From NCBI GenBank assembly GCA_963718915.1, contig CAVRAI010000003.1, positions 720,001 to 752,000 of the forward strand: a DNA stretch of 32,000 nt, read 5' to 3'. Numbering within the stretch: position 1 is the stretch's first letter; every line of letters starts with the position of its first letter. Positions 5,204 through 28,692 of the stretch are shown here, one piece after another. The notes below the pieces were generated by a model, which saw nothing but the letters and a program-made list of their open reading frames with translations, was not told where the DNA came from and did no database searches. Source of the DNA: an uncultured Chloroflexia bacterium. GTDB taxonomy: Bacteria > Chloroflexota > Ktedonobacteria > Ktedonobacterales > JADMIN01. The position numbers were made by a program, and so were the translations under genes.

Positions 5204-5623
5204 CTAGAACGGAAGTTGCAGTATCGTCAGGTCTTCCTGCTCCATCTCTTCGTTGTAGCGCTCCCACTCGGAGGGACTCCAGATCTCGAAATGGTCGTGT
5301 ACCCCAATAACTACCGCCTCGCCATTCAGCCCGGCGTACTTGCGAAACTTCGCGGGTATGATGATGCGCCCCTGCGTGTCCATCTCGCATGCGTCTGATG
5401 TACTGAAGAAGCGGTGCATCAGCATCCGGCGTATCTTGGGATTGGGATTGGAGGCTGCCAGTTCGCTGCCTTTCTGCTCCCAGGCGTCCAGTTGATAGAC
5501 ATAGAGGCACTGCTCCACCCCACGCGACAATGCGGCCCCGCCCTCGATCTGCGGACGGAAGCGCGTCGGAATGGCCAGTCGCCCCTTGGCGTCAATCTTG
5601 TACTGAAACTCGCCTAAAAACAC
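5204..5623 (-). CDS. mraZ: transcriptional regulator MraZ
   Basis: [18 protein letters not shown] and a second half-domain with DTQGRIIIP (duplicated SpoVT/AbrB-like MraZ repeats). GTG start at 5623 with GGAGG 5 nt upstream. The 216-aa track ORF (to 5854) is an artefactual 5' extension. Confidence 0.93.
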
Positions 5624-5672
5624 CACGACCTCCGCTGGCGGGTGGCAAATGGTGGGAATGCTCTTCACACTT

Positions 5673-5698
5673 CCCCACTTAGCCCCACTTAGCCCCAC
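5673..5698 (-). promoter_or_regulatory. putative MraZ operator: three GTGGGG boxes with 10-bp phasing
   Basis: The minus strand reads GTGGGGCTAA GTGGGGCTAA GTGGGG, 50-75 nt upstream of the mraZ start and 6 nt downstream of a TATACT -10-like hexamer (5705-5710). Phased GTGG/TGGG direct repeats are the known MraZ-binding architecture. Confidence 0.55.
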
Positions 5699-5738
5699 GC
5701 ATTCAGTATAGCCCCCCACCAGCCCACCTCCTACCCCT

Positions 5739-5840
5739 TTATCCACGACTTTATCCCCCAGTTCTCCACAAGCCGTGGATAAGCCGTGGACAAGCTGTGG
5801 GGGATTTGGGTGGATATGGGGGTAAGTGGGGCGATGGGGC
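5739..5840. repeat. field of 10-11-bp phased GTGG(A/G) repeats, several matching the DnaA-box 9-mer with one mismatch
   Basis: TTATCCACG (5739-5747), TTCTCCACA (5762-5770), reverse-strand TTATCCACG (5774-5782), reverse-strand TTGTCCACG (5785-5793), reverse-strand ATATCCACC (5809-5817). The plus strand reads CCGTGGATAAG CCGTGGACAAG CTGTGGGGGAT TTGGGTGGATA TGGGGGTAAG TGGGGCGA TGGGGCAAG. Confidence 0.5.
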
Positions 5841-5902
5841 AAGAGGGCGACCAATGAGCAGGGCGCGTCGGAAGTGAAACCGAGTCCGGCTGAATTGTTG
5901 TC

Positions 5903-6039
5903 TAGCGAACGCGCCGGAAGCCAAAAGGCTCCAGCGAATGGGTGGGAAAATTCGCCGTAGCATTATGGAGTTTTACAATGTACGCCGAACACCGCACGTC
6001 GTGGTGGGCGCGGCAGACCGTAGCATAATGTAGTTTTAC
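5903..6039 (+). repeat. left array of ~23-nt CCGTAGC-RTRATG-N3-TTTTA motifs (two forward copies)
   Basis: CGCCGTAGCATTATGGAGTTTTAC (ends at 5976) and GACCGTAGCATAATGTAGTTTTAC (ends at 6039), about 60 bp apart. 5903-5976 is about 70% identical to the reverse complement of 7488-7557. Confidence 0.6.
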
Positions 6040-6317
6040 TAAATAACGTGAGTTCGGGATAAGCGAAATGCCTTCAACAGAGATATGATGCGGTTTACGA
6101 CACCCCGTCAGTCCCTGAATGGAGGCATTGTCATGAGTATACTCGACCTGGACGCCTTGTACTGCTCCGTGGATGCGTTCTGGCAGGTCTTTGAGCCGTG
6201 GTGGGAGCGCGAGTTGCTCGTCTCGGGGACGCGCCGTCGTCGACGCGCGACCCGGCTGCATCCCAGTGAAATTATGACCATCGCGATCCTCTTGCAGCAG
6301 TCGGGCTACCGCACCTT

Positions 6318-6359
6318 CAAAGCGTTCTATACAAAGCGTTCTATACAAAGCGTTCTATA
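6318..6359. repeat. tandem repeat, 14-bp unit x3 (CAAAGCGTTCTATA)
   Basis: Three perfect copies, read directly. The 28 extra nt shift the transposase frame. Confidence 0.95.
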
Positions 6360-6416
6360 CTGAGTATGTGCAGGTGCATCTGCGCCGGGAGTTTCCGCAC
6401 CTCGTGAGCTACAATC

Positions 6417-6486
6417 GCTGCATCGAATTGCTGCATCGAATTGCTGCATCGAATTGCTGCATCGAATTGCTGCATCGAATTGCTGC
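6417..6486. repeat. tandem repeat, 13-bp unit x5 plus a partial copy (GCTGCATCGAATT)
   Basis: Five perfect copies (6417-6481) plus GCTGC. The 52 extra nt shift the frame. Confidence 0.95.
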
Positions 6487-6543
6487 CGCGAGTCCTCCTT
6501 CCGCTCGCCGTCTACCTGCGCACGCAATGTGGAACCTGCACCG

Positions 6544-6565
6544 GTGTCAGCTTCGTGTCAGCTTC
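6544..6565. repeat. tandem duplication, 11-bp unit x2 (GTGTCAGCTTC)
   Basis: Two perfect copies inside the GVSFIDST (first DDE Asp) region. 11 extra nt. Confidence 0.95.
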
Positions 6566-6784
6566 ATTGACTCGACGGCCCTCGCGGTCTGTCACCCGGC
6601 GCGCATCCACCAGCATCGGGTCTTTCGCGTGGATGCCCGGCGGGGCAAGACCTCGGTGGGCTGGTTCTTCGGCTTCAAACTGCATCTGGTGGTCAACGAC
6701 CGCGGCGAACTGCTGGCGTTTTGTCTTCCCCCCGGCAACGTCGATGACCGTCAGCCTGTGCCACGCTTGGTGCGTGGCACGCAT

Positions 6785-6856
6785 CGCCTCTTCGGTCGCC
6801 TCTTCGGTCGCCTCTTCGGTCGCCTCTTCGGCCGCCTCTTCGGCCGCCTCTTCGCC
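6785..6856. repeat. tandem repeat, 12-bp unit x6 (CGCCTCTTCGGT x3, ..GGC x2, ..GCC x1)
   Basis: Six copies with 3' variants. In frame, encoding (RLFG)n-RLFA just before the DKGY Asp. Confidence 0.95.
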
Positions 6857-6858
6857 GA

Positions 6859-6878
6859 CAAAGGCTACCAAAGGCTAC
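6859..6878. repeat. tandem duplication, 10-bp unit x2 (CAAAGGCTAC)
   Basis: Two perfect copies inside the DKGYIS codons. 10 extra nt. Confidence 0.95.
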
Positions 6879-6887
6879 ATCTCGGCG

Positions 6888-6943
6888 GCGCTCGCTGAGC
6901 AGCGCTCGCTGAGCAGCGCTCGCTGAGCAGCGCTCGCTGAGCA
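6888..6943. repeat. tandem repeat, 14-bp unit x4 (GCGCTCGCTGAGCA)
   Basis: Four perfect copies. The 42 extra nt keep the frame overall, but the phase-shifted copies create a TGA. Confidence 0.95.
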
Positions 6944-7292
6944 GCTCTTGCTCACTCAGCGCCTGCGCCTCATTACCAAACTGCGCAAAAATATGCGCCA
7001 TGTGCTCATGCCCCTGGCCGACAAACTCCTGCTCCGCAAACGGGCGATCATTGAGAGCATCAACGACCAACTCAAGAACATCTGCCAGATTGAGCATACC
7101 CGCCACCGCAGCCCGCTCAACTTCCTCGTGCATCTCTTCGCCGGATTGGTCGCCTACTGCCGCCAACCCAAGAAACCCTCCCTCGTCCAAGAGCAGGAGA
7201 TGCCCGTTCATGTTACCCTGTAGTTATCCCGAACTCACGTTAATTACGACGGACCGCCACGGCGGCGGGCGACTGAAGTCGCGCCTGAAGGG

Positions 7293-7320
7293 CCTCGCCT
7301 GCTGCGCCTCGCCTGCTGCG
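7293..7320. repeat. tandem duplication, 14-bp unit x2 (CCTCGCCTGCTGCG)
   Basis: Two perfect copies, about 50 bp outside the right IS end. Confidence 0.95.
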
Positions 7321-7394
7321 CACGCTCCGCCACGACACCCGCCTGCGCGGGTTGCCCAGAACCGCTCGCCAGCGGGGAGCCGTTGGGACACGGT

Positions 7395-7455
7395 CTGGGA
7401 GTCCGCGACGGCGGACTTCGTGGCCGCAGGCCCCACAGGCGCGGTTTGAACCGCC
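7395..7455. repeat. REP-like triple-hairpin element, copy A (intergenic)
   Basis: CTGGGAGTCCGCGACGGCGGACTTCGTGGCCGCAGGCCCCACAGGCGCGGTTTGAACCGCC. Hairpins are GTCCGC-GACG-GCGGAC, GGCC-GCA-GGCC and GCGGTT-TG-AACCGC. About 88% identical to 11688-11749. Confidence 0.8.
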
Positions 7456-7487
7456 CGCGCTGCCCAGCCCGTGTCCCTGGTGCTTTC

Positions 7488-7623
7488 TAAAACCACATAA
7501 TGCTCCGGCGAATTTCCCGCCTCCCAGGCCCATGCGCCGGAGCGTTCACGCTACGGTCTGCTCACCCCACCGCAATACCCGTGTCCGTCGCACATGCTAA
7601 AAGTACATCACGCTACGGTCAGC
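7488..7623 (-). repeat. right array of CCGTAGC-RTRATG-N3-TTTTA motifs (two full and one partial copy, reverse orientation)
   Basis: The reverse complements read CGCCGGAGCATTATGTGGTTTTA (7488-7510), GCAGACCGTAGCGTG (7547-7561, partial) and GACCGTAGCGTGATGTACTTTTA (7598-7620). Spacing is about 50-60 bp. Orientation is inverted relative to the left array. Confidence 0.6.
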
Positions 7624-7858
7624 CTCGTCCGCCACACCGCGCGGTGTTCGGAGGAATCCGCGAACCAGTGAGGAGGCGTCCTGGCGGAGAACCAGGCTAG
7701 TGGTACAACGCTGCTGGCGAAACCACGTAGTAGAGAATAACGTTGGTTTGCGGTATTGCTGGCTTGCGTGTTACCTATATGGCCTGTTATGCTGCATTCC
7801 GAACTCCAATCAGCAGCCAGACATCATAGCGGCGGTTATTTCCGCGCAGGGGGTGGAC

Positions 7859-10234
7859 ATGGCGGTATCTTCTCCCAATGGCACGCAGACCACGACGGCG
7901 AATGCTGGCAAAAGATCCTCGCGCTGGCGGCCGTTCTGGCGGCTCGTCTGGCGCATCGCTGTGACGGCCATCCTCGGCGCGATTGGCGCGGCGGCGGGCT
8001 TCTACACCGAATCGCTGCTCAAAGACCTGCCCCGACTGCCCGAACAGATACGCGACGCGCCCGACGTCGTGCGCATCGTCGTGATCGCCCTTGTCGCCAT
8101 CGTGATCGCGCTGGTCATCGCCAGCTATTTCTGGGGCAAGAAGGTCGAAGATGATGAAGAGGAGACAATTGCCCCCCGGCTGGACGAACTAGCGACGGCG
8201 GACCAGGAGATCAAGAAGGATACGGAAGAGGCGAACGTCCGGCTCATTCGGATCGAAGGTATCCTGACCCGCGAGGCGCCTGCCATCCCGGCAACCGTGC
8301 TGGCCTCCAGTCTGCCACGCCCGGTGAGGCTGATTGGCCGCGACGACCAGATACGCGACCTGATGGCATCGCTGAAAGCGGGCAAGTCGAGTAGTGTTGT
8401 GGCGCTGGAGGGTATGGGCGGCGTTGGCAAGACGGCGCTGGCAGCCGAATCAGTCGCGCGATTGGCAGAGAGCGGCGATTTCCCCGGCCGGGCGGTCTGG
8501 ATCTCGGTGGCGGGGCTGACCGGCGCCAATGGGCTGGCCGAGGTATGGACGCGCATCGGCGGCGAGCTTGGTCTGCAACAGCTTGCGACGCTGACCGAGG
8601 CCGAGGCGCGGCGGCGGGCGCTGCGCGGAGAACTGGAGGGCCGAGAGTTGACGCTGCTGGCGCTGGATAACGTCGAGCGCGATTTGGACGCCAATGCGCT
8701 GCTTGATACGCTGGCGGTCGAGGGACATACCACGCTGCTGTTGACCTCGCGCTATACTCTCGCACCGCAGCGGCTCACCACAATTACACTGCGCCCGCTA
8801 CGCACGCCCGACGCCGAGACGCTCTTCCGCGACCAGATGCGACGCAGGAACGCCAGTCGCCCCAATGCAGCCGACGAGGACTATATCGCGACACTGGCCA
8901 GACTGGTTGGCGGGTTGCCGCTGGCGGTAGAGCTTGTCGCGGCATATGCGAGTGGACAGAACCTCTCGCTCGCCACGGTACTCAAGGAATTGGGAGAGAA
9001 GGGGCTTGACGCCGCCGCCTATGATGACCCGATGTATCCACAGCGGGCGCTTGTCGCGACCTTCGAGCAGTCGTGGGCTATCCTCTTGCCAACACAGCAG
9101 CAGCTGTTCGCGGGACTCTCGCTGCTGGCGGAGTCGAGCTTCCCGCGCGCTGTGGCGCTGGCGCTGGCCGCCGCGACCGAGCCGCCCGCCCGCGAGAGCG
9201 ATCTGGCGGCGCTGGTGAGCTATGCGCTGGTCGAGCCACTGGCCGATGAGCGACAACGGCTGCACCCGCTGCTGCGCGAATACGCCACCCAGAAGCTTGC
9301 TACGCTGCCAGCCACCATAGCGGCCAGCCTGGGGCAGGCGATGGCGGCATACTGGATCGCCTATGCGAAGGAGCATCCTGGCTATGACGGCATGGACGCG
9401 CTGGCGGCTGAGAATGACGGGTTGATGGGCGCGTTGACCTGGGCGCACGACCACCAGCAGCACGAAACTTTGCTGGCGCTGGCCCACTCTCTCAGCCGCT
9501 ACTGGTTCGTGCGCGGACGCATTGACGATGCGCGTCTCGCTCGCCCCTGGGCGCTCGAAGCAGCGCAAGCGACACAGAACCAGCGTGAGACGCACTGGAC
9601 GTTGCACGAACTTGCGTTATTAAAGAGTATAACCGGCGACCTGGTGGGGGCGCAATCCGGCTTTGAGGAAGCGCTGGCGCTGGCCCGGCAGTTAGGCGAC
9701 CCGTCCGCCGAACAAGTCGAACTGCACGGCCTGGCGGTGCTCAAGCTTAAGACCGGCGATGTGGCGGGCGCCCAGGCTGGCTATGAGGAAGCACTGGCGC
9801 TGGCCCAGCAACTGCACGACCCGTCCGCCGAGTTTGCCGAACTGCACGAACTGGCGGTGCTCAAGAGCAAGATCGGCGACCTGGTGGGGGCGCAATCCGG
9901 CTTTGAGGAAGCACTGGCGCTGGCCCGGCAACTGCATGACCCGGCGGATATTGCGATGGAGTTGCGCAACCTCGGTGCCCTGCTTGGGCAGAACGGCCAG
10001 CCAGAGCGCGGGCGGACGATGATCGAGGAAAGCCTGACACTGAGCGAGCAGTTGCGTGATCCGCAGGCGATTGGCGATTGTCACCAGTTTCTGGCCTGGC
10101 TCGACCGAGCTGCGGGCAACCACGCTGGCGCCATACAGCACTACCGCGAGGCGCTGCGCCGTTTCGAGCAGGTGCGCTCGCCCGATGCCGAAGATGTGCG
10201 TCGCGATCTACGCGCGCTGGGCGAGGACGCCTGA
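7859..10234 (+). CDS. membrane-anchored NB-ARC (AP-ATPase) STAND NTPase with C-terminal TPR array
   Basis: Preferred start is the ATG at 7859 (MAVSSPNG); the track start at 7700 is a GTG extension. Two N-terminal TM helices and a short acidic/coiled segment. Walker A is LEGMGGVGKTALA and Walker B is LTLLALDNVE. Also LLLTSR, the GLPLA motif (GGLPLAVELVAAY) and an MHD-like LHPLLREYA. These are followed by at least five 40-aa TPR-like units. Confidence 0.85.
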   Translation: MAVSSPNGTQTTTANAGKRSSRWRPFWRLVWRIAVTAILGAIGAAAGFYTESLLKDLPRLPEQIRDAPDVVRIVVIALVAIVIALVIASYFWGKKVEDDEEETIAPRLDELATADQEIKKDTEEANVRLIRIEGILTREAPAIPATVLASSLPRPVRLIGRDDQIRDLMASLKAGKSSSVVALEGMGGVGKTALAAESVARLAESGDFPGRAVWISVAGLTGANGLAEVWTRIGGELGLQQLATLTEAEARRRALRGELEGRELTLLALDNVERDLDANALLDTLAVEGHTTLLLTSRYTLAPQRLTTITLRPLRTPDAETLFRDQMRRRNASRPNAADEDYIATLARLVGGLPLAVELVAAYASGQNLSLATVLKELGEKGLDAAAYDDPMYPQRALVATFEQSWAILLPTQQQLFAGLSLLAESSFPRAVALALAAATEPPARESDLAALVSYALVEPLADERQRLHPLLREYATQKLATLPATIAASLGQAMAAYWIAYAKEHPGYDGMDALAAENDGLMGALTWAHDHQQHETLLALAHSLSRYWFVRGRIDDARLARPWALEAAQATQNQRETHWTLHELALLKSITGDLVGAQSGFEEALALARQLGDPSAEQVELHGLAVLKLKTGDVAGAQAGYEEALALAQQLHDPSAEFAELHELAVLKSKIGDLVGAQSGFEEALALARQLHDPADIAMELRNLGALLGQNGQPERGRTMIEESLTLSEQLRDPQAIGDCHQFLAWLDRAAGNHAGAIQHYREALRRFEQVRSPDAEDVRRDLRALGEDA
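9601..9960 (+). repeat. three tandem 120-bp units encoding near-identical TPR repeats
   Basis: Units 9601-9720, 9721-9840 and 9841-9960. A stretch of about 56 nt, GGCGACCTGGTGGGGGCGCAATCCGGCTTTGAGGAAGC.CTGGCGCTGGCCCGGCA, recurs at 9636 and 9876 with one difference. Confidence 0.9.
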
Positions 10235-10323
10235 GCGACGAATGGTATACTAGCGAGAGGCAAACAATATGCGCAGCCAGAGAATGTCATCGAATGGCGG
10301 CGATTACTTTGAGGTGACGCGCG

Positions 10324-11620: not shown

Positions 11621-12952
11621 ATGAACAACACGCCGCCTCCAGCGAGCGAGCAATCTTTGCCAGCAGAACCAGTGCGCCAGCTGGAGTCTGGGAAGTCCGC
11701 GCAGGCGGACTTTGTGGCCGCAGGCCCTCAAGGCGCGGTTTTAACCGCCAGCGCCTCCACACCCCGCACAACAGGCCGTCGCCTGGCGCGTGGTTGCCTG
11801 ACCTCACTGAGCTGGCTGGCGCGGGCAGCGCTGCTGGCGTTGCTGCTTCTTGGCGTCTTCCTCTCGCTCTTCCCCAATGGGCGCGCCGCTCTACGGGGGA
11901 CGCTGCTGGTACCCGCCGTCCTGCTGCCAAACAAGACGACGCCGCTCACCGCGACCGGCAACACCGTTCGCCATAGCACGATGGTCGTCACCGCGCGCTC
12001 CGGGCCGGTCTACCTGGATATCTACGAGCCAGCGGATAGCGCGCCACCACTGCCCGGCGCGCGTGAGGGTGTGGTGGTCATCCCTGGCATTGGCGACGAA
12101 CGCAAAGACTCACAGCTCATCAACCTCTCGACCTCGCTGGCGCGTGAGGGGATCGTCGTGATGGACCTGACGACGCCCGCGCTCATCGCCCGACGGCTCG
12201 ACCCCGACGACGTAGACGCCGTCGTCCAGGCGTTTCTGGCGCTGGAGCATCATCCCTCGGTTGGCGCGGGGCGCGCGGGCATCCTCGGCATCAGCGGCGG
12301 CGGCGATCTTGGCATGCTGGCGGCGGCTGATCCGCGCATCCGCGATCAACTGGGCTTCATGATGCTCTTCGGCGGCTACTACGACGCCACCTCGCTGCTG
12401 CGGGACTTCGGGCGGCGCGCGCTCGACGTGGATGGCACGCTCGAACCCTGGACGCCCAACCCCGTGCCGGTGGAGGCGCTGGCCAAGACGATAGCCCCGA
12501 CGCTCAGCGCGAGCGAGGGCAAGCTGCTGGTGGGTGCGCTCTCGGAGCATGGCAAGCCGCTCACCGCTGTGCAACTCGCCAGCCTCTCGCCCGGCGCGCT
12601 CGCCGCGTACCATCTGCTCCACGGCGACGACCCCACCCATGTGGATGCCAATATTGCCGCGCTCACGCCCGCCATGCGGCGCGATCTGGTGGCGCTCTCG
12701 CCCAGCGCGGTTTTGGGTGACATTCACGCGCCGATCTACCTGCTGCACGACCGCAACGATACGTATGTGCCCTTCACCGAGTCGCGCGCCTTCGCGGCGG
12801 CGCTGGTCCAGGCGAATCATCCGCATGACTTCGTGGAGCTTAATATCTTCGCCCATGTCGAGGTAAAGTCGGGGCAGGGATTTGGCCCGCTGGTGGGTGA
12901 TGGCGTGCGGCTCTTCGGCATCCTGACCGAACTGCTGGAGCATGCCTCGTAG
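11621..12952 (+). CDS. membrane-anchored alpha/beta hydrolase (S9/dienelactone-hydrolase-like)
   Basis: ATG with AAGGAG 5 nt upstream. N-terminal TM helix (LSWLARAALLALLLLGVFLSLF), nucleophile elbow GISGGG, YLLHDRNDTYVP (Asp) and FAHVE (His). Confidence 0.8.
   Translation: MNNTPPPASEQSLPAEPVRQLESGKSAQADFVAAGPQGAVLTASASTPRTTGRRLARGCLTSLSWLARAALLALLLLGVFLSLFPNGRAALRGTLLVPAVLLPNKTTPLTATGNTVRHSTMVVTARSGPVYLDIYEPADSAPPLPGAREGVVVIPGIGDERKDSQLINLSTSLAREGIVVMDLTTPALIARRLDPDDVDAVVQAFLALEHHPSVGAGRAGILGISGGGDLGMLAAADPRIRDQLGFMMLFGGYYDATSLLRDFGRRALDVDGTLEPWTPNPVPVEALAKTIAPTLSASEGKLLVGALSEHGKPLTAVQLASLSPGALAAYHLLHGDDPTHVDANIAALTPAMRRDLVALSPSAVLGDIHAPIYLLHDRNDTYVPFTESRAFAAALVQANHPHDFVELNIFAHVEVKSGQGFGPLVGDGVRLFGILTELLEHAS
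11688..11749. repeat. REP-like triple-hairpin element, copy B (inside the hydrolase coding region)
   Basis: CTGGGAAGTCCGCGCAGGCGGACTTTGTGGCCGCAGGCCCTCAAGGCGCGGTTTTAACCGCC. It has the same three stems as copy A with different loops, and is translated in frame as SGKSAQADFVAAGPQGAVLTA. Confidence 0.8.
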
Positions 12953-23382: not shown

Positions 23383-26300
23383 ATGGGGTCACAGCAGATG
23401 GCGCAACGCAAGCGCCGCACAGCAAGAGGCTCGTTTGCAGAGTGGCAACGGGTCACTCTACTCTGTATCCTGGTCTTCGCCGGGCTTGGTCTAAGCGTCG
23501 GCAGCGCATTCGTATCCGGCGTGCCGCAAGCGTCGGCGGCGGCCAACGCTATCCAGATCGAGAATACCCAGCCGGGTGACTCCACCTGGGACGATTTCAG
23601 CGCCAACCTGAGCCAGACGGCGCTCTCAGGCTATTCTTCGCCGATCAGCGTCAATCATGGGCAGACGGTGAACTTCTACGTCACCACCACCTCCGCCAGC
23701 GTGAAGATTGACATTTACCGCATGGGCTGGTACGGCGGCACCGGCGCGCGCCACATGGAAACGCTGGGCACCTATGCCGGACAGCAACAGCCGATCCCCA
23801 ATCCCGATAAGGTCACTGGCATCGTCGTCTGCAACTGGCAAATGACCGCCTCGCTGGCCGTGCCCTCCAACTGGGTGACCGGCGTCTACCTTGCCAAGCT
23901 GACCGGAACCAGTGGCGATAAGAGCTTCATCTTCTTCAACGTGCGCGACGATGGCGGCCACGAAGATTTTGTCTTCCAGACCAGCGTCACCACCTACGAG
24001 GCGTATAACACCTACGGCATCACCAGCCTCTACAACAACTCCGCCAGCGATCCAACCTACCCGTATCCGCACGCGACCAAGGTATCGTTCGACCGGCCCT
24101 TCAACCCCGGCGATAGCAATGGCGCGGGCCACTTCCTCTGGTATGAGTATCCGATGTTGCGTTGGGCCGAGAAAAATGGCTTCGACTTGACCTATACGAC
24201 CGATATTGATACTGACCTCAACACCAATCCGCTCACCAACCATAAAGCATTCCTCTCGGTCGGCCACGACGAATACTGGTCGAAGGCGATGCGCGACAAC
24301 GTCCAGGCGGCGATCAACGCTGGCGTGAACGTCGGGTTCTTCGGCGCCAACGATGTCTACTGGCAGGTCCGCTTCGAGCCGAACGCGCAGGGTGTGCCTG
24401 ACCGCGTCATGGTGGGCTATAAGGACTTCGCCACTATCAACCAGTTGCCTGGCCCTGACCCTCAATGGGGCGTCAACAATGCCATTGTGACCACTAGATT
24501 CAGGGATGATCCGCTCAACCAACCGGAAATTGGCATCGTCGGCGCTATGTTTATCGACGAGAACGATACCCCTGATGGGCGGCCCTACGTCGTCACCAAC
24601 GCATCGAGCTGGGTCTTTGCCAATACGGGCTTCGTCAACGGCACATCGGTCCCTGGTATCGTCGGCTATGAGTTCGATAACTCCTTTACGGATCCGAGTA
24701 CTCCTGGATACGCACAGTATCATACCGCCAGCCCGGCTGGCCTCCAGGTGCTCTCGGCCTCTCCCGTACAGGGCGACAATGGCCTCGAAATCGCCAACTC
24801 CACCATCTACACTGCCTCCAGTGGCGCGCGTGTCTTCGCGGCGGGCACCATCGAATGGAGCTGGGGTCTCGATAACTTCGGCGGACGGAACACTGCCAAC
24901 GCCGGTATCCAGCAGATGACCGCGAATATCTTCTATAACTTCAACGGCGGCACGCCACCGCCACCACCGCCGCCACCACCACCAGGCACCTATCTGCAGG
25001 ACAACTTCGAGTCTGGCAACCTGACGCAGTGGAACGGCCCGTTCGGCACCGGGTCGGCAGGCGTCGTCACGGGGCCGAGCGTCCACAGTGGCACCTACTC
25101 CGCCCAACTGATTGATCCGAGTGGATCCAGCCAGTATGTGACGCTTACGCAGAATCTGGTCAACAGTCCGGGGGCCAATACCTATACCCGTCTCTACTTC
25201 CAGGTCAGCGATGCCAGTGTGACTTCGACGCTTGCCGTGGCAACCGATAGTAGTGGCAATAACCGCTGGGCGGCTATCTACGATGGCGGTAGTCACGGCG
25301 TGGATACCTATTTCTGGAATGGCGCCGGTACTCGCTTCGAGTATGACAGCCCCTCCAACTTGATCTCATCCAACACCTGGTATGGATTGCAGGTTCAGTT
25401 GAACGAGGCGACGAGTGGGGCGGGCAATATCTGGCTCAACGGGACGCAGCTCGGTGGGGTGACAGGCAACCTCTCAGCCTCCACGCCGATCAACGCGCTC
25501 ACGCTCTGGAACGAAGGCCCTGGCACGACCATCGACTTTGACGATGTGATTGTCTCCGATCATGACAATGGCGCCGTCAGCAGCGGCGGGTCTCCCCCCG
25601 CCTTCAACCCGACTAACGTGAGTTTTGGCAACCAGAATATCGGCACGACCAGCGCCGCCCAGACTGTGACGCTGACCAACGCGAGCGGCTCGACGCTTCA
25701 TATCAGCGCCGTCGGTATCACCGGAAACAACACCGGTGACTTTGCCAAGGGCGCCGATACCTGCACCGGGGCCACGGTTGCGGTGAATGCCACCTGCACG
25801 GTCAGCGTGACCTTCTCGCCAACGGCGGTAGGCAACCGAAGTACCGTTCTTAGCTTTACCGATGATGGCCCCGGCAGTCCGCAGAGTGTCGCGCTCAGCG
25901 GCGCTGGCGTCGCTGTCGGCCCGGCGGTCAGCTTCAACCCGGCCAACCTGAGCTTCGGCAACCAGAATACCGGGACGACTAGCGCGGCCAAGACCGTGAC
26001 CGTCACGAATAACGGCAATGCCACCCTGCACATCACCACGGTGACGATCACCGGCACCAACCCCGGTGACTTCGCCAAGAGCGCCGATACCTGCACCGGG
26101 GCCACGGTTGCGGTGAATGCCACCTGCACGGTCAGCGTGACCTTCTCGCCAACGGCGGCGAGCGGACGGAATGCCGCGCTCTCGTTCGCGGACGACGCCG
26201 CTGGCAGCCCGCAGACCCTCGCCTTGACCGGCACGGGGGTCGCGCCAGCGATTAGCCTCACCCCGACGAGCCTGACCTACGGCAGTCAGGGAATTGGCAC

Positions 26301-28692
26301 GACCAGCACGGCGCAGACGATCACCGTGACGAATAACGGTACGGCTGCCCTGCATGTGACCTCGGTGACCTTCACCGGGACGAATGCGGGCGACTTCGCC
26401 AAGAGCGCGGATACCTGCACCGGGGCATCAGTGGCGGCCCTCGCGGCGTGTAGCGTCAGCGTGACCTTCTCACCGACGGCGACGGGCGCGCGCAGCGCCA
26501 CGATCTCCTTCGCCGATGACGTGGTACCCAGCCCGCAGACCGTCGCTCTGAGCGGCACGGGCGTTACCGTGGCGCCAGGAATAAGCTTCAATAACCCCAC
26601 ACTCACCTTCGCCAATCAGGGGGTTGGCACAACCAGCGCGGCCCAGACCGTGATTGTCACGAATAATGGCAATGCCAGTCTGCATGTGACCTCGGTGACT
26701 TTCACCGGGACGAACGCGGGCGACTTCGCCAAGAGCGCCGATACCTGCACCGGGGCCACGGTCGCGGTGAATGCCACCTGCACCGTCAGCGTGACCTTCT
26801 CGCCGACTGCGTCAGGCAGCCGCACCGCCTCACTCTCCTTCGCCGATGACGCGCCCAGCAGCCCGCAGACCGTCGCGCTCACAGGCGCTGGAATGCAGGT
26901 CGGCGTCTATCTGCAGGATGGCTTCGAGAGCGGCAATCTCAGCCAGTGGTCGGCTCCGGCGGGAACCGGCTCGGCTACTGTCCAGACCAGTGTGGTGAAT
27001 AGCGGAACCTACGCGCTGGCGATGACCAACGGCGCCAACCAGTATGTCATCACCTCGCAGAGTCTGAACGGCGGCGCGCAGGCGCACACCTTCAGCCGCC
27101 TCTACTTCCGCATCACCAACGCCAGCGTCTCCTTCAGCCTCGCCTCCGCCACCGATAGCGCGGGCAACAACTTGTGGGCGGTGGTCTACGACGCGGGCAG
27201 TCATGGTTTCGACGTCTACTTCTGGAACGGGTCGCGGACCCGCTTCGACTTCTACAGTAGCGCCAACCTGATCCAGGCGAATGCGTGGTATTCCCTGGAG
27301 ATCGAGCTGAACGAGGCGACGGCGGGCGCGGGCAATGTCTGGCTCAATGGAAATCTGCTCGGTGGGGTGACGGGTAACCTCTCGGCCACCAGCAACCTCA
27401 GCAAGCTCTTCCTCTGGAACGACGCCGCGAGCGCCACCACCTACTTCGACGATGTTGTGGTCTCCAATGTCTACAATGGGCCGTTGGGTAGCGCCGCCGC
27501 GATTGGGTTCACGCCCAGCAGTGTGAGCTTTGGCAACCAGGGCGTCGGCACGACCAGCTCGGCGCAGACCATCACCGCCAAGAACACTGGCACGGCCAAC
27601 CTGCACCTGACGACCGTTGTCATCACCGGTACGAATTCAGGTGACTTCGCCATCAGCGCCAACACCTGCAATGGCGCGGTACTGGCGCCGAACGCGACCT
27701 GTACGGTCAGTGTGACGTTCACTCCGGGTTTGGTCGGCAATCGGAGCGCCTCGCTCTCCTTCACCGATGACGCGCCGCTCAGCCCGCAGGCCGTTGCGCT
27801 GACTGGAACTGGCGCCACATCGGGGGTCAACTTCAATCCGACGAGCGTCAATTTTGGCACTCTGACGGTATCCACGACCGGCGCGGCGCAGACCATCACC
27901 GTGACGAATAATGGCGCGGCTATTCTGCATATCACCTCGGTGACGCTGACTGGGACGAACGCGGGCGACTTCGCCAAGAGCGCCGACACCTGCACCGGGG
28001 CGACCGTCGCGGCCAACGCGACGTGTACGGTCAGCCTGACGTTCACTCCCGGCGCGACAGGCGCCCGCAGCGCGTCGCTCTCCTTCGTGGATGACGCGCC
28101 GAATAGCCCGCAGACTGTGGCGCTCTCAGGCGCGGGCGCTGCCGCGGCTCCAGCGGTCAGCTTCAATCCGACCGGCCTGAGTTACGGCAACCAGAATACT
28201 GGGACGACCAGTGCGGCGAAGAGTGTCACGGTGACCAACACCGGGACGGCTGCTCTGCATGTCACCCTCGTCGCCCTTGCTGGCACGAACTCCGGTGACT
28301 TCACCATCAGCGCGGATACCTGCACCGGGGCCACGGTCGCGGCGAATGCGACCTGCTACGCCAGTGTGACGTTCACTCCCGGCGCAACGGGCGCCCGCAG
28401 CGCCACACTGACCTTTACCGACGACGCGGGCGGCAGCCCCCAGACGGTCGCGCTCTCGGGCACGGGAACCGCCGCAGGGATTTCCTTCACCCCGCCCAGT
28501 CTGAGCTATGGCAACCAGGGGACGGGATCGACCAGCGCGGCGCAGACCGTTACGGTGACCAACACCGGCACGGCTGCCCTGCACGTCACCTCGGTGACGA
28601 TCACCGGGACAAATGCGGGTGACTTTGCCAAGAGCGCCGACACCTGCACCGGGCCGCCATCGCGGCGAATGCGACCTGCACGGTCAGCGTGA
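23383..28692 (+). CDS. giant secreted modular protein, N-terminal 1769 aa (frame interrupted near 28651)
   Basis: Signal peptide (LLCILVFAGLGLSVGSAFVSGVPQASAAA). N,N-dimethylformamidase-large-subunit-like domain (ENTQPG, YRMGWYGGTGAR, TYEAYNTYG, GHDEYWS, GANDVYWQVRFE). Pro10 linker (24955-24984). Then a LamG-like domain, four ~100-aa choice-of-anchor-D/ASH-like repeats (FGNQ..GTTSAAQT.T.TN.G...LH...GDFA...DTC), a second LamG-like domain and four more repeats. Confidence 0.9.
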   Translation: MGSQQMAQRKRRTARGSFAEWQRVTLLCILVFAGLGLSVGSAFVSGVPQASAAANAIQIENTQPGDSTWDDFSANLSQTALSGYSSPISVNHGQTVNFYVTTTSASVKIDIYRMGWYGGTGARHMETLGTYAGQQQPIPNPDKVTGIVVCNWQMTASLAVPSNWVTGVYLAKLTGTSGDKSFIFFNVRDDGGHEDFVFQTSVTTYEAYNTYGITSLYNNSASDPTYPYPHATKVSFDRPFNPGDSNGAGHFLWYEYPMLRWAEKNGFDLTYTTDIDTDLNTNPLTNHKAFLSVGHDEYWSKAMRDNVQAAINAGVNVGFFGANDVYWQVRFEPNAQGVPDRVMVGYKDFATINQLPGPDPQWGVNNAIVTTRFRDDPLNQPEIGIVGAMFIDENDTPDGRPYVVTNASSWVFANTGFVNGTSVPGIVGYEFDNSFTDPSTPGYAQYHTASPAGLQVLSASPVQGDNGLEIANSTIYTASSGARVFAAGTIEWSWGLDNFGGRNTANAGIQQMTANIFYNFNGGTPPPPPPPPPPGTYLQDNFESGNLTQWNGPFGTGSAGVVTGPSVHSGTYSAQLIDPSGSSQYVTLTQNLVNSPGANTYTRLYFQVSDASVTSTLAVATDSSGNNRWAAIYDGGSHGVDTYFWNGAGTRFEYDSPSNLISSNTWYGLQVQLNEATSGAGNIWLNGTQLGGVTGNLSASTPINALTLWNEGPGTTIDFDDVIVSDHDNGAVSSGGSPPAFNPTNVSFGNQNIGTTSAAQTVTLTNASGSTLHISAVGITGNNTGDFAKGADTCTGATVAVNATCTVSVTFSPTAVGNRSTVLSFTDDGPGSPQSVALSGAGVAVGPAVSFNPANLSFGNQNTGTTSAAKTVTVTNNGNATLHITTVTITGTNPGDFAKSADTCTGATVAVNATCTVSVTFSPTAASGRNAALSFADDAAGSPQTLALTGTGVAPAISLTPTSLTYGSQGIGTTSTAQTITVTNNGTAALHVTSVTFTGTNAGDFAKSADTCTGASVAALAACSVSVTFSPTATGARSATISFADDVVPSPQTVALSGTGVTVAPGISFNNPTLTFANQGVGTTSAAQTVIVTNNGNASLHVTSVTFTGTNAGDFAKSADTCTGATVAVNATCTVSVTFSPTASGSRTASLSFADDAPSSPQTVALTGAGMQVGVYLQDGFESGNLSQWSAPAGTGSATVQTSVVNSGTYALAMTNGANQYVITSQSLNGGAQAHTFSRLYFRITNASVSFSLASATDSAGNNLWAVVYDAGSHGFDVYFWNGSRTRFDFYSSANLIQANAWYSLEIELNEATAGAGNVWLNGNLLGGVTGNLSATSNLSKLFLWNDAASATTYFDDVVVSNVYNGPLGSAAAIGFTPSSVSFGNQGVGTTSSAQTITAKNTGTANLHLTTVVITGTNSGDFAISANTCNGAVLAPNATCTVSVTFTPGLVGNRSASLSFTDDAPLSPQAVALTGTGATSGVNFNPTSVNFGTLTVSTTGAAQTITVTNNGAAILHITSVTLTGTNAGDFAKSADTCTGATVAANATCTVSLTFTPGATGARSASLSFVDDAPNSPQTVALSGAGAAAAPAVSFNPTGLSYGNQNTGTTSAAKSVTVTNTGTAALHVTLVALAGTNSGDFTISADTCTGATVAANATCYASVTFTPGATGARSATLTFTDDAGGSPQTVALSGTGTAAGISFTPPSLSYGNQGTGSTSAAQTVTVTNTGTAALHVTSVTITGTNAGDFAKSADTCTGPPSRRMRPARSA

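Follow-up and report, generated by a model that had tools for sequence, protein, structure and literature searches.

How does a transposase gene come to be broken by short tandem multiplications, and by no other kind of frame-disrupting lesion? This question is raised by an insertion sequence (IS) of the IS982 family from an uncultured soil bacterium of the Ktedonobacterales (Chloroflexota), which lies in a 32,000-nt stretch of DNA that was analysed as a whole and is referred to here as the window (GenBank assembly GCA_963718915.1, contig CAVRAI010000003.1, positions 720,001 to 752,000 of the forward strand). The transposase frame of this element carries six arrays of 10-14-nt units, and a second copy of the element carries at least five of these, two of them with altered copy numbers. 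Counted from the first letter of the window, the element and its frame are placed as follows:

6040-7246, plus strand: IS982-family element, non-autonomous, about 1.2 kb long (about 1.0 kb without the arrays)
6133-7223, plus strand: disrupted transposase reading frame, with stops in all three raw frames

Arrays were located by Tandem Repeats Finder (TRF) and by a separate perfect-period scan of the window. Six head-to-tail arrays (14 nt x3, 13 nt x5, 11 nt x2, 12 nt x6, 10 nt x2 and 14 nt x4) are spread across 6318-6945, and a seventh lies in the flanking non-coding DNA:

6318-6360, plus strand: array 1, CAAAGCGTTCTATA, 14 nt x3 (TRF x3.1, 100% matches), adding 28 nt, frame-shifting
6413-6486, plus strand: array 2, CTGCATCGAATTG, 13 nt x5 and a partial unit (TRF x5.7, 98%), adding 52 nt, frame-shifting
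6544-6565, plus strand: array 3, GTGTCAGCTTC, 11 nt x2.0 (100%), adding 11 nt, frame-shifting
6784-6856, plus strand: array 4, CGCCTCTTCGGN, 12 nt x6, in frame, encoding RLFG x5 and RLFA
6859-6878, plus strand: array 5, CAAAGGCTAC, 10 nt x2.0 (100%), adding 10 nt, frame-shifting, within the DKGY motif
6888-6945, plus strand: array 6, GCGCTCGCTGAGCA, 14 nt x4 (TRF x4.1, 100%), adding 42 nt, in frame overall
7292-7321, plus strand: array 7, GCCTCGCCTGCTGC, 14 nt x2.1, perfect, about 50 nt beyond the right inverted repeat

Within the element, arrays 1, 3, 5 and 6 are perfect, as is array 7 outside it. The perfect part of array 2 covers 6417-6486 (x5.4), the sole mismatch falling within its leading partial unit. 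TRF places array 4 at 6784-6854 (x5.9, 98% matches), where three units end in GGT, two in GGC and the final one in GCC. Arrays 4, 5 and 6 nearly abut one another (6784-6945). The initial annotation of this DNA had regarded the six arrays as the only inactivating lesions. Every frame-breaking lesion is indeed a short tandem multiplication, but only four arrays (1, 2, 3 and 5) break the frame, with array 4 (+60 nt) and array 6 (+42 nt) remaining in frame. Array 7 belongs to the same lesion class, so the arrays are not strictly confined to the element.

The ends of the arrays carry information about their origin. End homology amounts to 1, 5, 0, 0, 2 and 2 nt for arrays 1, 2, 3, 5, 6 and 7, respectively. 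A clear flanking direct repeat is present in array 2 only (GCTGC, 5 nt), and DNA alignment indicates that it was extended from GCT to GCTGC by a lineage-specific TTC to TGC change (F to C). Array 2 would therefore represent the classical situation in which ABA becomes ABABA. Pre-existing direct repeats of at least 3 nt are found for arrays 2 and 4 only, that of array 4 being a natural 12-nt repeat. No sequence motif common to the array units or junctions was found on reading them.

Keeping one unit per array removes 28+52+11+60+10+42 = 203 nt; the resulting 888-nt frame has 295 codons plus stop and is free of internal stops and residual frameshifts. TRF, the period scan and the collapse itself thus reproduce the unit sizes, copy numbers and frame that had first been traced by hand, and translation confirms that the frame is clean. 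The proposed IS982 identity also holds, as the collapsed open reading frame (ORF) matches both NCBIfam NF033520 (IS982 family transposase; 241 bits, 1.3e-71, against a cut-off of 130) and Pfam PF13612 (DDE_Tnp_1_3; 225 bits, 4.6e-67, cut-off 27), and is 90% identical to an intact 294-aa metagenome transposase (P0001). In a 13-sequence alignment with 12 homologues, D116 (in FIDST), D192 (in DKGY) and E240 (in IIESIND) fall in invariant columns; we take these to be the catalytic residues, as in DDE transposases generally.

Relative to two intact homologous elements, all six arrays are clean insertions in the DNA alignment. The possibility that intact homologues naturally contain the repeated peptides had been named as a check on the initial claim; they do not, the natural pair of RLFG units excepted. 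Before DKGY, the arrangement xLFG-xLFG is present as two units in 134 of 167 homologues and as three units in five, the latter reflecting natural slippage at the 12-mer site across the family. Because homologues naturally carry two units, the ancestral state of array 4 was also two, and collapsing it to one unit over-corrects. At the C-terminal end of the frame (7170-7190), there is in addition an extra in-frame 6 nt compared with homologues (CAAGAG CAGGAG, encoding QEQE), which may be an older and imperfect tandem duplication.

The ends of the element are better preserved than its reading frame. Its inverted-repeat arms (6040-6062 and 7224-7246) are 23 nt long and 96% complementary, and homology to the related elements L001 and L002 begins at about 6044 (TAACGTGAGTTCGGGATAA) and stops at about 7242 (TTATCCCGAACTCACGTTA), so that the ends are conserved. 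The flanks read CTAAAT on the left and AATTAC on the right, sharing at most AAT, with no clear target-site duplication; the homologue L002 has a 5-bp duplication, ATGTT. Rfam and tRNA scans gave no matches in or near the element, and a promoter and terminator scan returned nothing informative. The element is a pseudogene, that is, a non-autonomous derivative unable to encode its own transposase.

Repeats of another kind flank the element. Units of about 50-60 nt occur twice to its left (5945-6038, spacing 63 nt) and, inverted, two or three times to its right (7471-7651), the inverted arms measuring 48-54 nt with 77-81% complementarity and having no Rfam match. One unit of this small repeat cluster appears to have been the insertion site of the element.

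Whether the arrays are real, and whether they arose in this copy, can be addressed through a sister copy (copy B), which was read from its predicted proteins and from reconstruction with window DNA rather than from its own DNA. The largest broken ORF of the window element (6368-6898) finds its best protein match in P0241, a 119-residue protein encoded on a 910,535-bp contig. The window's N-terminal ORF (76 aa, ending in the array 1 junction) and C-terminal ORF (91 aa) have exact members on this contig, and their 90% clusters each contain one further sequence from the same contig (P0289 and P0291, respectively). Since the 443-aa protein and the 362-aa MutY-like protein of the window are also exact members there, the window belongs to the 910,535-bp contig. 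Within the window itself there is one copy of the element.

The proteins of the sister copy record its arrays in some detail. Deleting exactly one 14-nt unit from the window DNA and translating the result gives P0289, with array 1 at x2 instead of x3. In P0241, the junctions of array 3 and array 5 are recognisable from their out-of-frame peptides (CQLRVSF and DKGYQRLHLGGAR*, respectively), and the 12-mer array differs from that of the window; this protein can be reproduced from window DNA with five 12-nt units in another order and two single-nucleotide changes, one deletion and one insertion. In P0291, a single residue is different and the TTG start is unchanged; this start depends on the TGA within array 6 immediately before it, and at least two units of array 6 are thereby inferred for the sister copy. 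On these reconstructions, the sister copy shares at least five of the six arrays and differs in the copy number of two (14-mer x2 versus x3; 12-mer x5 versus x6).

Comparison of the two copies shows that the arrays are real, inherited and unstable in copy number. They arose in a common ancestor element, which was then duplicated, and copy numbers have drifted since. This overturns the initial description of six independent lesions of the window copy, as at least five of the six came from the common ancestor; it agrees with the slippage-type change in copy number that had been suggested at the same time.

A related question is how long the element has been free of constraint. The earlier statement that point mutations are not evident carries less weight than it seems to, as some point changes are present. 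The collapsed protein departs from its homologues at F54L, Y149F and G209R (columns at least 95% conserved among 120 homologues) and at T169P and G191A (columns at least 90% conserved in the 13-sequence alignment), G191 being the glycine of LFGDKGY. Three or four of seven apparent departures at conserved columns are explained by the over-collapse of array 4. The absence of stop codons is itself weak evidence, as it remains more than 5% likely up to about 10% neutral divergence. The ratio of nonsynonymous to synonymous substitution rates (dN/dS) is 0.09-0.115 between the collapsed ORF and intact copies, and 0.07-0.10 among intact copies. Because this ratio is barely raised, the neutral phase looks short, though not zero; a rough estimate suggests about 2% divergence.

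The cluster of arrays is far above chance. Thirty shuffles of the window gave 0-1 perfect arrays (period of at least 9) per 32 kb; the real window has eight, all within 5673-7321. Other IS982 loci provide a second comparison. Among 160 of these from genomes and metagenomes (702 kb), 33 perfect arrays were found, or about one per 21 kb, none of them inside a transposase gene. Five of the 160 loci are at least 82% identical to the window protein, and none of these five bears an array. The frameshifts of two close but decayed copies, L084 and L085, were considered as candidate tandem duplications and rejected, as they proved to be an 8-nt non-tandem insertion and a 2-nt deletion.

Arrays of a similar kind are also present in related genomes. 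A uniform TRF census found 0.79 arrays per kb in relatives (80 kb), 0.30 of them perfect, and 0.25 arrays per kb in controls (695 kb), 0.037 perfect. In the perfect-array scan of syntenic relatives, all 15 in-gene arrays have a period of 9, 12 or 15, and nine intergenic arrays have periods of 9-20. For example, GCAGAACTAG directly follows the rsmH stop at x2.8 or x4.8, depending on the related contig, and is found at these loci, which are intergenic and follow stop codons:

L165, 10985-11012: GCAGAACTAG array
L166, 1900-1927: GCAGAACTAG array
L167, 2062-2109: GCAGAACTAG array
L168, 1321-1348: GCAGAACTAG array

Likewise, TAGCAATCTCA occurs once in the window, twice in L165 (near the position that matches window 12950) and three times in L163 (3085-3115), again between genes and after stop codons. 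Pairs of adjacent arrays are also present in one relative, L169, and in several cases the same array is found in three or four separate short-read assemblies of related organisms. The pattern is as expected from a general duplication process filtered by reading-frame selection, and would be partly general in the clade, which seems prone to this class of mutation.

The explanation to which we give about an even chance is the neutral decay of a dead, non-autonomous IS982 copy by short tandem duplication and then slippage. Each array would have been founded by one-step tandem duplication of 10-14 nt, with the exception of the 12-mer, which would have been founded by expansion of the natural two-unit RLFG repeat. 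Replication slippage would have enlarged the arrays afterwards. Loops of 10-14 nt may escape mismatch repair, which would allow rapid growth once two units are present. The first frame-breaking hit would have left the element free of selection, so that arrays of any length could persist, and the tight clustering could follow if unstable arrays provoke slippage or repair synthesis nearby. Because both terminal inverted repeats have been preserved, the second copy would probably be the product of a related IS982 transposase supplied in trans, or of segmental duplication. The near-abutting arrays suggest either that existing arrays promote nearby events or that several arrays stem from one complex repair episode. 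The process is one of decay, not of a regulated or reversible switch.

Several observations weigh against this explanation. End homology ranges from 0 to 2 nt in five of the seven arrays (1, 3, 5, 6 and 7), a poor fit to slippage between pre-existing direct repeats as the founding event; ligation of an unremoved flap, or fill-in at a staggered break, would explain homology this short no less well. Six array births with no other indel in a short neutral phase far exceed ordinary indel-to-substitution ratios. Decayed IS982 copies of related organisms (L084, L085, P0245 and P0247) show small indels and point changes, and no arrays. At about six arrays per kb, the element also exceeds the window's other non-coding DNA at least 20-fold, the latter having about 0.25 arrays per kb (a rough figure, from one array in about 4 kb). 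By TRF, the 30 kb of the window outside 5600-7400 are at control level (0.26 arrays per kb, none perfect), where about nine perfect arrays would be expected at the relatives' rate. A globally raised array rate is thus not shown by the available sequence of this genome. A simple genome-wide high rate was considered and is weakened by the same census. Background rate alone does not account for the cluster in the element, and the strength of the clustering, at about six arrays per kb versus almost none in the rest of the window, remains the unexplained part of neutral decay.

The first rival explanation is a regional or element-specific burst, a possibility that we consider somewhat unlikely. Error-prone synthesis over about 1 kb, in a single episode or a small number of them, would then have created most arrays, with slippage later. 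Candidate sources include serial template switching in break-induced or gap-repair synthesis, fill-in and end joining of staggered breaks with 10-14-nt overhangs, and synthesis linked to mobilisation. A stretch of 1 kb (6318-7321) contains seven perfect arrays, against none in the other 30 kb except the conserved MraZ-box repeat at 5673-5698; three arrays almost abut (6784-6945), and the cluster crosses the right end of the element, as array 7 lies outside. The narrow band of unit lengths (10-14 nt), the apparent shortness of the neutral phase and the short end homology in five of seven arrays, which staggered-end fill-in fits better than direct-repeat slippage, all point the same way. Tandem duplications result when paired nicks or excision patches on opposite strands are filled in, and bacterial UvrABC excises a patch of 12-13 nt, which also counts in favour of a burst. 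However, the unit variants of array 4 and their different order in the sister copy imply several steps over time, array 2 has its classical 5-nt flanking repeat, and arrays of the same kind occur singly at many unrelated sites of related genomes. In addition, no nuclease or end-joining system was identified within the window. A further proposal, which we regard as improbable, is that a mutational process at work in this genome introduces clusters of 10-14-nt tandem duplications preferentially into the DNA of mobile elements, through fill-in of staggered breaks or excision patches with end joining, or through slippage-prone synthesis during trans-mobilisation. If true, this would amount to a bacterial equivalent of mutagenesis directed at repeats or transposons.

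Very unlikely, in our assessment, are a process directed at the mobile element, which would be a host defence that attacks IS DNA, and reversible silencing of the transposase through copy number; targeting of the IS and reversible silencing had both been suggested in the initial annotation. The at least 20-fold density in the element would fit such a process, as would the presence of arrays in both known copies and the lack of any other lesion class in the window copy. The geometry of the arrays speaks against a switch: the four frame-shifting arrays sum to 101 nt (2 mod 3) and the in-frame arrays insert 14-20 residues beside Asp192, the second catalytic Asp, so that no single slippage event restores function and reversion by slippage is effectively impossible. 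Array 7 lies outside the element, and sharing by two copies is most simply a matter of descent. The 160 other IS982 loci are free of arrays in the transposase gene, including Ktedonobacterales copies, some of them decayed, and we know of no IS-directed defence or switch that makes arrays of this kind. An assembly or sequencing artefact, in which the arrays would be absent from the DNA of the organism, is scarcely credible. The source is a metagenome-assembled genome, and the sister copy has two single-base indels, one of which falls in or beside a short homopolymer run (T2/C6/G2); consensus errors of long reads may account for them. Yet at least five of the six arrays recur elsewhere on the contig, and wherever their junction peptides can be read (arrays 1, 3, 4 and 5), these are identical; the existence of this second copy makes an artefact unlikely. 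Arrays of the same class and size are also present in independently assembled short-read contigs of relatives. With lengths of 20-74 nt, the arrays lie within the span of single reads or k-mers, and the internal unit variants of array 4 look like history, not stutter.

The surroundings of the element place it within a larger insertion. RsmH and the genes around it assign the window to uncultured Ktedonobacterales: the best RsmH matches are 93-95% identical, and several of them are named Ktedonobacterales. The contigs of syntenic relatives have 88-90% nucleotide identity. In four of these relatives, the MutY-like glycosylase gene adjoins mraZ; the window has about 4.4 kb of extra DNA between them (about 5840-10300), which consists of the IS982 remnant and an 844-codon ORF with NB-ARC and TPR domains (7700-10234). 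The latter is a STAND-type NTPase gene, for which PADLOC returned a generic TPR match only.

5204-5640, minus strand: mraZ

Immediately upstream of mraZ, direct repeats of GTGGGG with 10-nt spacing (on the mraZ strand) are found at 5673-5698 and 5768-5839. They are conserved in place as GTGGGGCAAA x2.3-2.6 in L163, L165, L167 and L169, and look like a putative MraZ operator, which we take to match the known MraZ box architecture. These repeats were examined as a further instance of the array phenomenon and rejected, being operator-like boxes that occupy the same place in relatives.

Other repeats in the window are of different kinds. Non-coding DNA to the right of the element (7393-7460) is 87% identical over 69 nt to 11686-11754, at the start of a 443-codon gene (11621-12952) named dienelactone hydrolase in related records, and looks like a gene-fragment duplication within the inserted segment. 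The TPR part of the NB-ARC gene contains a 120-nt unit x2.8 (9603-9943), and a 1769-codon ORF (23383-28692) contains a 330-nt unit x3.6 with 74% matches (25717-26891); these are protein-domain repeats of an ordinary kind and have no connection with the short arrays. In the relative L163, an IS605-type TnpB (OrfB_IS605 and Cas12f1-like_TNB; 1471-2710) is called as two overlapping genes, at a site where the window has no such element. It is probably frameshifted, and there is no tandem array at the split.

Taken as neutral decay, the locus offers a clean natural case in which one mutation class dominates the loss of unconstrained sequence. Its two paralogous copies act as a built-in clock, according to which changes in copy number and base substitutions proceed at about the same pace. 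The comparison with relatives suggests that tandem duplications of 9-15 nt are prominent in the indel spectrum of some Ktedonobacterales lineages, a clade pattern that could be tied to a specific deficit in repair or in Okazaki-fragment processing. Should the clustering be element-specific, transposon DNA and duplication mutagenesis would appear to be linked in a way not yet described. There is also a lesson for annotation: gene calling splits such a copy into three or four small ORFs with no stated relation, which should be merged into one pseudogene.

Literature searches brought up no specific account of such arrays, whether for Ktedonobacteria or for IS elements. Several better-known systems offer comparisons. 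The element resembles other members of the IS982 family in that its collapsed ORF scores above the model cut-off, its terminal inverted repeats are conserved and it measures about 1 kb once the arrays are removed. It differs in having a frame broken in four places, about 200 nt of arrays and no clear target-site duplication. MITE-like elements mobilised in trans also have intact terminal inverted repeats, no functional transposase and at least two near-identical copies that share lesions. However, MITEs are usually derivatives with internal deletions, whereas this element is full length and longer than its parent; only two copies are known, and the second may stem from trans mobilisation or from segmental duplication. 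Phase-variable contingency genes provide another parallel, as repeat copy number alters their reading frame, but they toggle the frame with one tract, while this element has four frame-shifting arrays and two large in-frame insertions.

The arrays themselves are most like bacterial loci with a variable number of tandem repeats (VNTR), or minisatellite-like loci, which they resemble in their perfect 10-14-nt head-to-tail units and in a copy number that varies between copies and related genomes. Typical VNTR loci are single arrays, intergenic or within surface-protein genes. Here, seven distinct arrays are found in about 1 kb of mobile-element pseudogene, and most have no pre-existing repeat in intact relatives. 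The closest described mutational signature comes from yeast without the Rad27/FEN1 flap endonuclease, in which insertions mediated by short direct repeats (ABA to ABABA) dominate, insertions outnumber deletions, hotspots recur and one locus has 2-4 copies of a 16-bp unit (PMC5677150). Both cases feature tandem duplications of short unique segments, with multi-copy variants. In the bacterial element, unlike in yeast, a clear flanking repeat (5 nt) is present in array 2 only, and the others have 0-2 nt. The likeness is one of outcome, and any shared mechanism would be conjectural. In summary, the locus combines two known kinds of feature, an IS982 pseudogene and arrays of the VNTR type formed by duplication and slippage; what is unusual is their purity, their density and a sister copy that records the change in copy number.

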